Source of the DNA: Escherichia coli
GTDB lineage: Bacteria > Pseudomonadota > Gammaproteobacteria > Enterobacterales > Enterobacteriaceae
Assembly: GCF_030013205.1 (NCBI RefSeq)
Contig: NZ_CP122648.1
Strand: one strand, 5' to 3'
Length of the DNA: 64,000 nt
Shown here: one piece after another, positions 31,461-34,400 of the stretch
Layout of the letters: each line of letters starts with the position of its first letter
Numbering within the stretch: position 1 is the stretch's first letter
Program-made: the position numbers

Positions 31461-34400
31461 TAAATTTAATACAGCATCTATCGCCGGATGCGATGCTTTG
31501 CGAACGCAGCCTGAGCCTGCATATAAACTTGTCATTTCCTGATTTTGATATGCACATTCCAACATCAGAAGAAGGTTAAATTATGGATGACAAACCATTG
31601 CAGGCTCTGGCCAATCAACTCAAAACACCGGCTCAAGAAAGTCAGCGTAATGGCTTCTTCTGACTGCAACAGGTGAAGAAGCACCGGATGCATGAGCGAT
31701 TTCTTATAGTTATTCCTTTGCTTAATAACGATTATTTCCGGGTCGTTCGCTCTCGTATTTTCTTTAATACGTCAGAGCTGCCTGGGCCGTAATACAGCAT
31801 GTACCAGACCCGACACGGCATTTCTGACCAAGGGAAAAAGTCAACGATGAGTCGTTATATCAGCGCAAGTGACGTCCTGTGGCACCTTTGCGGTGACCAC
31901 ATTCACGTCTCCGGCGCTGCCAGAGGATATTTATTTCAAGGATACGTAGCATTATGGCCAGCATTAAAGACATCCGCCCATTCGCCCCCGGCATTCCCCC
32001 ATCTTCCGTTAACCCAGGCGTACGCCCACCAGGGCAGTTCTTCCTGCCGGTGGAACTCAAGAATGAAATTTTGCGGAACATGAAGTATATCGGCCCGCAA
32101 ATATTTAGCTGGGGTGATGACCACCGGCAGATCATTGACCTCAGTACCGCGGGAGAAGTGAAAATACATATGGTAGACAATACCATCATCACGTTGGAGC
32201 GCCTGAATCCGAATCCGCAACATAACGAGTTCATGATGGTCGCCGAATGGTGCCAATGGGCTATGGAGCGGGATGGTTTGCAAGAAAACCTGCAAAAAAA
32301 CCTGTACGAAATCCTGGAAGAAAACCAGCAAAACAAACAGTCAGAAATTCCCCAAGAAGACCTGAAAGAAAGTCTGGAAGAAATCAAGGAAAATATCCTG
32401 GAAGAAAACCTGCCAGCAAGCCGGATTGAAACCGGGCAGAAGCATTGCGCAGAATGAAGGAATGTCTCATTACAAGACGGAGTATGCTCAATCTTAGCAA
32501 CCTTGGGTTGACTTCACTCCCTGAAAATTTGCCTCCACATCTGATTGAATTTTACTGCAGTAAAAACGTGTTGACCGCGTTACCGAAGGTGATGCCAAAG
32601 TGGCTGCTGGTGCTTGACTGTACAGATAACGTCTTGATCTTGTTACCGAAGGTGCAGCCCTCAAAACTGATGGTACTGAAGTGCTATGAAAACTGTATTA
32701 TCTGGCTGCCTGAGCTGTCGACTAACCTGAGAGTGATTAACTGTTCTGAAAACTTCTTGCAATTTTTACCGCCGTCGATGCCCCAGTACCTGTATAAACT
32801 ATCCTGTGCCGGCAACAATATTCACTCAATACCTGATGAGATGCTGGAGAACTTGACTCGCCTGAAAGTATTTGACTGTTCTAGTAACGATTTGATCTCT
32901 GCACCACGGCTGCCGCCCAAACTAATAATTTACTACTGTGGAGAAAACAAGTTTAAAACGGTACAGGTGCCACAGCCCCAGAGCCTGAAGGTGTTTGACT
33001 GTAATGGTAACCCGTGGGACAAAGACAATTTACCGACGCTGTTCAAAGCCGTCGAGGGCCTGAAAAAACAGCAGGGCCTGAAGGACCTTTTGGGCTTTTT
33101 GCACAAGGAGGGCCAGATGAAGCTGGAGAAGCTGGAGAAGCTGGAGGATCTGGATGACCTTATGGATCTAGAGCTCCTGGATGACCCGGTACTCCTGGAG
33201 CGCGTGAAGGTACATGAGGACCTGGAGCTCCTGAATCAGCAGTTGGGCCTGTTGATTCTGGAAAGACAACAGGACTCGCAGCCTGTTAATCAACATTCTG
33301 AACATGAACCCGAATCTGCATCAAGGGTGAAGCGTGATTTATCTGAAGTCGAGTTCGAGTCAACAATGAAACGTAAGCGTTTTATGTAGAACGCCTGTGC
33401 GGTGAACTCAGGTTCCGGGGAAATAGTGTCCATCATTGTAATGGACACTATCATGGGAAATGGCTCTGTCACATCAACAACTACAGTTGCTGACCAGCCG
33501 GATGGATGATTTTTTCGCAACCAGAAGACGCTGCCTCCGATCCGGCTTACAACAAGTTACACTGTCACAACCGGGACACGTAACGCCAGCGCGCACATCA
33601 ACTCATAGCCCACCGTTCCGGCAGCGGCGGCGACATCATCAATTTTGATCTCCTTGCCCCACAGCTCAACCGGCGTACCAATCCCCGCCTGCGGGCAAGG
33701 CGTTAAATCAACCGCCAGCATATCCATCGAGACGGTCCCCACCGTCATGGTGCGCACGCCGTCCACTAAAACAGGAGTACCGGTAGGCGCATGGCGCGGA
33801 TAACCGTCGGCGTAGCCTGCGGCGACAATGCCGATTCGCTGTTCATCGCGCGCAGTATAGCGACCGCCGTAGCCCACACGCTCGCCCGCTTTTAGCGTCT
33901 GGACACCAATAATCTCGCTGCTTAGCGTCATCACCGGACGTAATCCGGTATTGGCGATATCACGCCACTGACCGGACGGCGAAGCGCCATACAAAATAAT
34001 GCCAGGCCGAACCCAGTCAAAATGCGCTTCCGGGTGCCACAGAGTCGCCGCCGAATTGGACAACGAACGCCGACACTCCAGCCCTTCCGCCGCCTGCTCA
34101 ATACGCGCCATCGCGCTGGAAATTCCATCAGGATGTTCCGCCTCGGCAAAATGCGACATCAGGGTCATTTCGCCAACATTCGCCATCGCCCGCAACTGCT
34201 GCCAGACGGTAAGCACGCGATCGGGCTGGAAGCCCAACCGATTCATCCCACTGTTCACTTTAAGATAAATATCCAACAGGGCTTTTAGCCGTGCATTTTG
34301 CAGTGCTTTGAGCTGCCAGTTGCTGTGTACGCAGGTGGTCAGGCGGTGCTGGTCATAAATCTCCAGATCCTGAGCATGGAAAAATCCTTCCAGCATCAGG

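Follow-up and report, generated by a model that had tools for sequence, protein, structure and literature searches.

What does a 26-codon open reading frame with a well-placed ribosome-binding site represent when it lies upstream of an LRR gene in Escherichia coli? The original prediction considered leader peptides, small proteins or chance ORFs for two short frames (ORF1 and ORF2) in a 64,000-nt stretch of contig NZ_CP122648.1 (assembly GCF_030013205.1; hereafter the window). For ORF1 none of these options fits; we identify it instead as the vestigial 5′ end of an IS1414-like transposase gene with its own ribosome-binding site (RBS). With a probability of roughly 0.9, sequence comparison places the left end of a dead IS256-family element at 31513..~31680, in which ORF1 would be a transposase-gene leftover retaining its native RBS, and ORF2 would be a chance frame. 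ORF1 was described correctly, while ORF2 as delimited and a separate 167-aa ORF were not upheld.

ORF1 occupies 31583..31663 on the + strand (ATG 31583-85, TGA 31661-63) and encodes the 26-aa peptide MDDKPLQALANQLKTPAQESQRNGFF, as predicted. The predicted Shine-Dalgarno (SD) sequence GAAGG is likewise present at 31571..31575 (+ strand), with the ATG 7 nt further on. Among ATG-initiated ORFs of 20-60 codons in the window, 55 of 609 (9%) equal or beat the anti-SD energy of ORF1 (-5.5 kcal/mol). A short ORF with such an SD is, taken alone, within chance; ORF1 is non-random because it is homologous to IS1414, not because of its RBS.

IS1414, an E. coli element of the IS256 family, has astA/EAST1 embedded in its transposase gene. 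Four lines of evidence, namely blastn, plasmid matches, alignment and the K-12 annotation, revealed the left end of a decayed IS1414-like element at 31513..~31680 (+ strand). What survives is the terminal inverted repeat and 5′ UTR, followed by the RBS and ATG of the transposase gene and by N-terminal codons with an internal deletion. IS1414 nt 1-121 matched window positions 31513-31629 with 77.7% identity (E = 2.7e-22), and the match begins exactly at the IS terminus. The same stretch matched 714 plasmid records under IS256/IS1414 transposase feature annotations, and an alignment of the remnant with IS1414 copies takes in the annotated "IS1414 (partial)" of K-12.

The terminal inverted repeat (IRL; 31513..31539, + strand), GAGCCTGCATATAAACTTGTCATTTCC, can be aligned to the IRL of IS1414, GAGCCTGTACATAGATTTGTGTAATTGCC; a complete IS1414 on a plasmid has its ends delimited by an 8-bp target duplication, AGCAGCCC, at both sides. 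The distance from terminus to ATG is 71 nt in the remnant versus 73 in IS1414, and the transposase starts compare as MDDKPLQALANQ versus MDEKQLQALANE. The context of the SD, GAAGGTTAA(A/T)TTATGGA, is common to IS1414 copies and K-12 ymgM, marking GAAGG as the RBS of the transposase gene itself.

At the protein level, tblastn aligned transposase (Tnp) residues 1-25 with ORF1 at 60% identity, and the ORF1 tail together with its read-through (RNGFF*LQQVKNNQRRITG) matched Tnp residues 84-103 in the ORF1 frame. ORF1 consists of transposase residues 1-12 fused in frame to approximately residues 77-89, and its stop (TGA, 31661-63) is a nonsense mutation of a CGA found in other alleles. Neither ORF1, nor its 53-aa form, nor ORF2 matched any Pfam or NCBIfam profile; since these profiles miss both ORF1 and its 53-aa form, the assignment of ORF1 rests on DNA and short-peptide homology. 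In the course of events reconstructed here, an internal deletion of about 62 codons left the native RBS and the first 12 codons, ATG included, joined in frame to approximately codons 77-89; a CGA-to-TGA nonsense mutation then shortened the transposase frame to ORF1, and a further 158-bp deletion in this strain produced an 8-bp hairpin by accident.

A complete DDE transposase (~400 aa, Pfam Transposase_mut) is absent, with 26 codons left here and 53 in the best alleles. Because only 26-53 codons persist and no Pfam or NCBIfam profile matches, we regard the locus as a remnant rather than a functional IS256-family member. Beyond nt 1-121, only IS1414 nt 322-380 aligned, within the extra 158 bp of strain EC10. 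A local-alignment search for a right IS end in 31700-33600 gave a score equalled or exceeded by 67 of 300 shuffles, and no target duplication was found for the remnant.

Comparison of five alleles captured this decay in progress. Some encode the 26-aa ORF1 and others a 53-aa form, as do alleles L006 and L007 with CGA at the stop position; further differences include a 1-nt indel, 29-bp and 158-bp deletions and one SD mutation (GAAAG in strain CM2, the SD being well kept in the other four). These comparisons directly document the homology and the series of alleles, as well as the deletions and the nonsense mutation. Database homologues of the 53-aa form number 28, all of them 29-86 aa long, and those with a named source are hypothetical proteins of E. 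coli or Enterobacteriaceae; the 18 whose sequences were compared share a common N-terminus followed by frameshifted tails. The first ~30 residues are well kept among alleles, a conservation that cannot tell constraint from recency because divergence is within-species only; a hand count from the allele alignment gave about five non-synonymous to three synonymous changes.

The original prediction had proposed conservation of the reading frame among homologous insertions as its test, and the outcome goes against a leader peptide: the frame is 26 or 53 aa long, predicted products range over 29-86 aa, the SD is mutated in one allele, and the hairpin depends on a deletion. Decay of IS1414 has been reported to be widespread (PMC12585946). 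Decayed plasmid copies retain the same start and run into arbitrary ORFs of 58, 90, 169 and 210 aa.

The 8-bp inverted repeat reported after ORF1 is real, with arms GCTTCTTC (31653-60) and GAAGAAGC (31675-82). Structure prediction, which had been suggested as a check, supports the hairpin as a fold (31653..31682, + strand; -17.7 kcal/mol, z = -2.6) and speaks against a terminator: it has no T-run, and no terminator-like site was called on the + strand across 31300-32100. Its 3′ arm crosses the junction of the 158-bp deletion (~31679-31681). At this point strains EC10, KKa019, JX21CE8 and CM2 are longer by 158 or 129 bp, and the additional sequence prolongs the transposase homology (KNNQRRITG...). 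As the 158-bp segment occurs in 669 genomes versus 834 with the full locus, the deletion appears to be carried by a minority of locus-bearing genomes.

A second, more stable structure is predicted at the IS end itself (31509..31611, + strand), built on a 13-nt inverted repeat that is 92% complementary. The IRL terminus (31509-21) is predicted to pair with ORF1 codons 6-10 (31599-611), and positions 31529-40 both with AGG in the SD (31573-75) and with 31585-93 (the last base of the ATG and codons 2-4). This fold reaches -37.5 kcal/mol (z = -4.9; none of 200 shuffles as stable), and its IS1414 counterpart has z = -3.4. The consensus stems are kept in nine sequences, with 98.5% of cells paired versus 34-48% when slid; covariation found no support in these nine sequences, nearly all pairs being invariant. 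In transcripts entering from cvrA, the IS terminus and inner IRL could pair with the SD and ATG region as well as with codons 6-10, so that the ORF1 start is probably masked in such read-through transcripts.

ORF2 had been delimited as a short frame ending just before the LRR gene. The stop assigned to it after ...FQGYV (TAG, 31947-49) belongs to a different frame, and ORF2 reads on as GYVALWPALK... to a stop ending at 32083. The true ORF2 (31847..32083, + strand) is 78 aa long from ATG 31847, or 94 aa from ATG 31799. It begins inside a conserved leader and extends, in another frame, over codons 1-43 of the LRR gene; a 1-nt indel puts the upstream ATG out of frame in two alleles. Because it has no well-spaced SD and the variants in its unique part are mostly non-synonymous (R3S, S8N and H13L against one synonymous change), ORF2 is read as a chance ORF, the one proposed option that holds.

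Directly 5′ of the LRR gene lies a conserved leader (31683..31953, + strand), presumed to contain its promoter and 5′ UTR. In divergent alleles it shows 1.5% substitutions versus 7.6-9.4% in the LRR gene, and its predicted folds have z = -3.0 (+ strand) and z = -2.4 (- strand). No IS homology was detected in 31683-31953, a sigma-70 consensus scan of 31300-32100 returned no match, and Rfam returned nothing at E up to 1 across 31300-33700. An exact 27-mer from this leader, a probe that would miss diverged copies, gave a single match among one genome per species: a 2-kb contig labelled Collinsella. That contig, at 98-99% identity to this E. coli window, most likely represents contamination during binning.

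The LRR gene itself (31954..33389, + strand) is a frameshifted pseudogene here, split into ORFs 31954..32457 and 32445..33389. What had been taken for a 167-aa ORF is the 5′ part of this 478-aa gene, interrupted by the loss of one nucleotide from an A-run near 32428. The gene is intact in EC10 (478 aa, WP_001309452.1) and marked "frameshifted" by PGAP in the identical strain K_EC180; its LRR domain is similar to that of SlrP/SspH2. The view of the locus as an insertion is reasonable. In some E. coli the site between cvrA and dadX is empty and its REP-like hairpin intact; K-12-like and O157-like strains, which retain the 3′ end of the LRR gene, represent secondary deletions. The remnant adjoins the point where the ~2-kb LRR island splits the REP-like hairpin downstream of cvrA, and this position at the left edge suggests that an insertion sequence may have taken part in bringing the island in.

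K-12 offers an informative parallel, with "IS1414 (partial)" annotated in the same cvrA-dadX spacer. The first 30 nt (10 codons) of ymgM (b4740; protein 67 aa) lie inside this IS1414 fragment, and YmgM has been detected by SPA tagging (PMC6001520). An IS1414-type start can therefore be translated, and by analogy we infer that the start of ORF1 is translation-competent. ORF1 is nevertheless not YmgM: only the first ~8-10 residues are common to both. Comparison with the published YmgM sequence (PMC6001520) located the frame homologous to the ymgM body on the - strand of the window (31335..31565, a 76-aa ORF), antisense to the cvrA 3′ end and without the IS1414-derived start used in K-12; PGAP annotates 31398-31565 as an incomplete pseudogene. 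These comparisons explain the origin of YmgM as a chimeric ORF limited to lineages with the IS1414 fragment.

The K-12 arrangement might have arisen by insertion of a complete IS1414 into the 3′ end of the LRR gene, followed by deletion between the old terminus and the complementary codons 6-10 of the new copy. The junction predicted by this model (IS1414 right end + ...GAATCTGCATCAAGG) was found in 0 complete genomes at ≥80% coverage, and the single longer partial match to the query lay between cobO and rluB, at an unrelated IS1414 site. One sequence feature is consistent with such an intermediate: K-12 keeps the window-type AGCCT...GCA at the junction.

Three functional readings of the segment can be weighed against a dead IS end. 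The least probable, to the point of being negligible, is that the 13-nt inverted repeats (31509-21 and 31599-611) enclose a 77-nt invertible switch. These repeats do flank a segment with the SD and ATG, and K-12-like strains carry the homologous segment reversed relative to cvrA; the repeat is, however, intrinsic to IS1414 (terminus versus codons 6-9), and no recombinase gene lies nearby. The K-12 segment comes from a different IS copy, as it is 93% identical to IS1414 and only 83% to the window segment. None of 5426 genomes is inverted: matches to the inverted-segment query peaked at 82.5% full-length identity, and that match is the ordinary orientation bridged across a mismatched middle. The switch is effectively refuted. 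A functional leader peptide or uORF, whose translation together with the hairpin would regulate the LRR gene at the transcriptional or translational level, is highly improbable. ORF1 does precede the LRR gene and shares its strand, its SD is well spaced, the hairpin begins within its last codons, and the SD region (31565-74) is perfectly complementary over 10 nt to the end of ORF1 (31654-63), which could permit alternative pairings. Against this, the hairpin lacks a T-run, is not terminator-like and is made by a deletion apparently missing from most locus-bearing genomes; the wider fold (31555-31700) is ordinary (z = -1.2). The length and tail of ORF1 vary (26-86 aa), its stop lies 290 nt from the LRR ATG, the LRR gene is broken in this strain, and the sequence is fully accounted for as an IS relic.

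Somewhat less remote, though still very unlikely, is a small protein, in which the ancestral 53-aa form would have been exapted from the transposase N-terminus and independently expressed. Such a reading would draw on the ~30 alike N-terminal residues, on the translation of this start type in K-12 (tagged YmgM), and on PGAP, which calls the 53-aa form a CDS in some strains. PGAP calls ORFs on the opposite strand in other strains, so that its calls at this site are arbitrary; moreover, the tails diverge through frameshifts and deletions, a nonsense allele is present in the lineage of this window, and no family or domain matches. The ~62-codon internal deletion also takes away most of any N-terminal fold, and by exact 27-mer the leader occurs in no other species representative bar the probable Collinsella-labelled contaminant. 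ORF1 most likely has no role for the cell or the LRR gene, and on sequence grounds ORF1 and its RBS are best regarded as unremarkable genome debris and not as a novel regulatory peptide.

A more speculative extension of the dead-element reading, improbable but less so than the preceding alternatives, is that the IS left end serves as a portable translation-start donor. It would have given rise to YmgM in K-12 and, in LRR-island strains, to a variable 26-86-aa ORF headed by the older copy. Translated from an IS-internal promoter, that ORF could influence the conserved leader and the effector-like LRR gene downstream, or supply their transcription. For annotation, the "hypothetical proteins" called here in many E. 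coli genomes, on either strand and at varied lengths, are products of a decaying IS1414-like remnant, not a conserved small-protein family. The understanding of leader peptides and small proteins is unchanged by these results.

Several known systems place the remnant in context. With IS1414 it shares the left terminus GAGCCTG..., the 5′ UTR motif CCTGATTTTGATATG, the SD/ATG context, the N-terminal peptide MDxKxLQALAN and a terminus complementary to codons 6-9. It differs in being ~78% identical, with ~170 nt left, and in lacking the catalytic domain, astA, the right end and a target duplication; with so low an identity, its source was a related element and not IS1414 proper. The K-12 fragment is likewise homologous over the IS left end, SD, ATG and first ~8-10 codons, and both short ORFs begin MDDK. 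That fragment is, however, younger, a true IS1414 (93-94% identical) in opposite orientation, and ymgM continues antisense to the cvrA 3′ end, whereas ORF1 runs into decayed transposase on the other strand.

ORF1 resembles the attenuator leaders trpL and pheL in being short, with its own RBS, and in being followed by a hairpin and a downstream gene on the same strand. Unlike them, it has no terminator, no conserved alternative structures and no regulatory codon pattern; its length is variable, and 290 nt separate it from the gene. A mechanistic parallel for the predicted fold-back comes from IS10 and IS50, in which fold-back inhibits transposase translation in read-through transcripts. Only transcripts starting inside the element expose the RBS, and IS elements so avoid activation from outside. 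The outer-end sequence of the remnant may similarly pair with the translation initiation region, yet this pairing is predicted and has no covariation support, and YmgM is produced in K-12 despite a similar stem; in a dead remnant, such a structure would be no more than a relic.

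The 26-codon reading frame predicted upstream of the LRR gene (ORF1, 31583..31663, + strand) is present as described, with an ATG at 31583, a TGA at 31661-31663 and a product of 26 aa, preceded by GAAGG (31571-31575) at a spacing of 7 nt. Taken alone, ORF1 and its Shine-Dalgarno (SD) sequence are not beyond chance; 55 of the 609 ATG-initiated ORFs of 20-60 codons in the window show an anti-SD pairing energy at least as good. A blastn search revealed 714 plasmid records that match only the first ~120 nt of the leader, at 60-90% identity, and whose matching stretches carry an IS256 or IS1414 transposase annotation.

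As the IS1414 reference we used a complete copy from plasmid p720632_94, which spans 1314 bp, is flanked by 8-bp target duplications (AGCAGCCC) and encodes a 402-aa transposase with astA embedded. Window positions 31513-31629 are 77.7% identical to its nucleotides 1-121 (E = 2.7e-22), with the match starting at the exact IS terminus GAGCCTG. At the protein level, transposase residues 1-25 resemble ORF1 residues 1-21 (ORF1, MDDKPLQALANQ----LKTPAQESQ; transposase, MDEKQLQALANELAKNLKTPEDLSQ), and the ORF1 tail of strain EC10, read past its stop (RNGFF*LQQVKNNQRRITGI), resembles transposase residues 84-103 (RDGTFEPQLVKKNQTRITGM) with the frame unchanged. Because both DNA and peptide match IS1414, ORF1 is identified as a transposase N-terminus that has lost ~62 internal codons in frame and is cut short by a premature stop. 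ORF1 is a genuine sequence feature of ordinary origin, the vestigial start of an IS256-family transposase; its good ribosome-binding site does exist as sequence but is the transposase's own, derived from an IS1414-like remnant.

Alignment of five locus-bearing alleles (window, EC10, KKa019, JX21CE8 and CM2) did not bear out a conserved reading frame among homologous insertions, since lengths of 26 versus 53 aa, variable tails and one SD mutation (GAAAG in CM2) were observed. The window, EC10 and KKa019 have TGA at the stop position, whereas JX21CE8 and CM2 have CGA, so that ORF1 extends to 53 aa and is annotated by PGAP as a hypothetical protein (in RefSeq, 1185-1346, + strand, of the CGA allele L006). 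Past codon ~33, three changes separate the alleles: a 1-nt indel, a 29-bp deletion and, in the window type only, a 158-bp deletion. Within codons 1-26 we counted about five non-synonymous and three synonymous changes, an uninformative ratio with no constraint visible. The 53-aa form, searched against 5.8 billion proteins, returned 28 matches of 29-86 aa, all of those with a named source being hypothetical proteins from E. coli or Enterobacteriaceae; 18 of the 28 were compared, and these share their first ~30 residues and then diverge by frameshifts and deletions. The 26-aa allele was absent among the matches. RefSeq calls at this stretch also disagree between strains, placing ORFs on the plus strand (53 aa) in some and on the minus strand in others (50 aa in EC10, locus L002 1666-1818; 95 aa in KKa019, L008 1166-1453). 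Alleles and annotations thus vary in the manner of a decaying pseudogene and unlike those of a conserved peptide.

The remnant lies at the left edge of the LRR island, in a chromosomal context ordered emtA, ldcA, cvrA (29727..31463, + strand), a ~2.1-kb spacer, dadX (33557..34627, - strand) and dadA. Comparison of window 31464-33556 with loci L003, L011 and L012 revealed at least four structural states of this spacer in E. coli: an empty site with cvrA and dadX ~45 nt apart, the intervening sequence folding as a REP-like hairpin (e.g., O84:H7 strain Trh52); the full LRR island as in the window; a simple deletion of 31575-33279 in O157-type strains; and a deletion associated with IS1414 in K-12-type strains, the commonest state in an evenly spaced sample of ranked genome matches. 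Because the empty-site hairpin is split into two halves around the island (about 31482-31496 and about 33527-33547), the LRR island is an insertion, as originally proposed. Of 5426 complete E. coli genomes, 834 carry the locus in full. In O157-type strains the deletion takes away the ATG of ORF1 together with the last SD base (GAAGG to GAAGC), and the last LRR codons are kept in both O157-type and K-12-type strains.

The 9-mer CGCAGCCTG adjoining the left IS terminus (31505-31513) recurs in the LRR 3′ region (33274-33282), where it is preceded by AACAGGACTC, loosely similar to the IS1414 right terminus AACAGGCTC, and the O157-type deletion ends 6 nt away. A right inverted repeat, looked for formally, gave no significant match, and the recurrence may be chance. 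Separately, a 2,088-bp contig from a metagenome-assembled genome labelled Collinsella sp. (JAIJJM010000586.1) is 98-99% identical to the E. coli locus across the cvrA end, IS remnant and LRR gene; it is almost certainly mis-binned E. coli DNA.

The 167-aa ORF downstream forms the 5′ part of the LRR gene (31954-33389, + strand) rather than a gene of its own. The LRR gene is a pseudogene in the window strain, having lost 1 nt from an A-run near 32428. In K_EC180, which carries the identical stretch, PGAP calls a single frameshifted pseudogene covering this ORF and the 314-aa LRR ORF, and EC10 encodes an intact 478-aa protein annotated as leucine-rich repeat domain-containing protein. Similarity of the intact protein to the type III effectors SlrP and SspH2 is confined to their LRR domain (E = 6e-22 and 7e-18, respectively), both matches lying far under family cut-offs. 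Allele groups diverge at the DNA level by 7.6-9.4% in the LRR gene, compared with 1-3% in its neighbors cvrA and dadX.

A role for ORF1 as a leader peptide controlling the LRR gene is unsupported, given the 290 nt separating its end from the LRR ATG and the lack of conservation of the intervening structures. The 8-bp inverted repeat after ORF1 was recovered (arms 31653-31660 and 31675-31682); its 3′ arm (GAAGAAGC) is built across the junction of the 158-bp deletion, and where the 158 bp are retained the stem has 6 bp and local folding is ordinary (z = -1.45). Since that segment, whole or in part, is found in 669 genomes versus 834 with the full locus, the window hairpin would occur in at most roughly a fifth of locus genomes, an approximate figure from counts of different queries. 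The hairpin carries no T-run and was not called as a terminator.

For the second short ORF (ORF2), the TAG stop first assigned is out of frame; the true frame opens at 31847 (or 31799) and closes at 32083, extending across the first 43 LRR codons. Its unique 107 nt carry R3S, S8N, H13L and one synonymous change among the five alleles, and a 1-nt indel puts the 31799 start out of frame in two of them. By eye, the ATG at 31847 is preceded by a single purine-rich stretch (AAGGGAAAAAG), about 7-17 nt away and with a GGG core at 13-15 nt, which is poorly spaced for initiation; a pairing-energy scan that takes no account of spacing nonetheless gave this region -5.3 kcal/mol, on a par with the -5.5 of ORF1. 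ORF2 is open in all five alleles (78-79 aa), which is unremarkable at such divergence. Variants and spacing together favor the chance-ORF option, here a chance frame in the LRR leader.

The 271 nt just upstream of the LRR ATG (31683-31953) show 1.5% substitutions between allele groups, compared with 7.6-9.4% in the LRR genes and 5-10% in other intergenic parts, and this conservation is concentrated upstream of ORF2. The segment folds more stably than shuffles (z = -3.0 on the + strand, -2.4 on the - strand) and yielded no IS homology, Rfam match or promoter-consensus match. It probably represents the LRR gene promoter and 5′ UTR region; its conservation may reflect a regulatory role of the sequence 5′ of the gene, or mosaicism from recombination.

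A related start is found in K-12 MG1655, whose cvrA-dadX spacer carries an annotated partial IS1414 (1240188-1240289). The gene ymgM (1240260-1240463) starts inside this fragment and runs antisense into the cvrA 3′ end, so that YmgM is a chimera with RBS/SD, ATG and first 10 codons from IS1414 and the remainder antisense to cvrA (K-12 NC_000913.3, locus L004, 4189-4464). YmgM (67 aa, MDDKQLQAQAAFSKAS...) is among the proteins detected in MG1655 by chromosomal SPA tagging and immunoblot (PMC6001520), a paper in which the words "transposase" and "insertion sequence" are absent. In the window, the ymgM body lies on the minus strand (31335..31565) without the IS1414-derived start. The K-12 fragment is oriented opposite to the window's remnant, is 93% identical to IS1414 and only 83% to the remnant, and matches a plasmid-borne MDDKQL variant of IS1414; it is therefore a second, younger copy. 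Inversion of the window segment is ruled out by these identities and by its inverted form occurring in none of the complete genomes, in line with a separate IS copy in K-12. The K-12 state would have arisen when a fresh IS1414 inserted into the LRR 3′ end in opposite orientation, followed by a deletion between the old IS terminus (AGCCTGAGCCTGCA) and codons 6-10 of the new copy, which are complementary to it. Window-type bases are retained at the K-12 junction, and the predicted intermediate was not found in complete genomes. IS1414 is reported to have decayed extensively in E. coli (PMC12585946), and other decayed plasmid copies keep the start unchanged ahead of ORFs of 58, 90, 169 and 210 aa. 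In one such copy (plasmid CP122781.1, locus L016, about 1401-1650) a large internal deletion joins codon 18 in frame to the last ~40 codons, which yields the 58-aa ORF. This copy is a miniature derivative with the left end kept, and the sequence 3′ of its stop appears to resemble the IS1414 right-end region.

By analogy with YmgM, translation could probably initiate at the ORF1 start. The RNA stretch between the IS terminus and codon 10, however, is predicted to form an exceptionally stable structure, at -37.5 kcal/mol in the window (z = -4.9, none of 200 shuffles as stable), with z = -3.4 in IS1414 and -2.1 in K-12. In the predicted window fold, codons 6-10 (31599-31611) pair with the terminus (31509-31521), and 31529-31540 pairs with the AGG of the SD, the last ATG base and codons 2-4. 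The outer stem and CCU/AGG pairing are kept in nine sequences from both IS lineages, where 98.5% of cells are paired versus 34-48% with slid partners; one pair varies as U-A, U-G and C-G, and covariation had no statistical support in this set. No sigma-70 consensus promoter was found. Such a fold would mask the ORF1 start in transcripts reading in from outside, here from cvrA, and expose it solely in transcripts initiating inside the element. In this dead element the fold-back structure would be a relic. Fold-back inhibition is known from other insertion sequences, and the predicted structure of the remnant resembles this arrangement.
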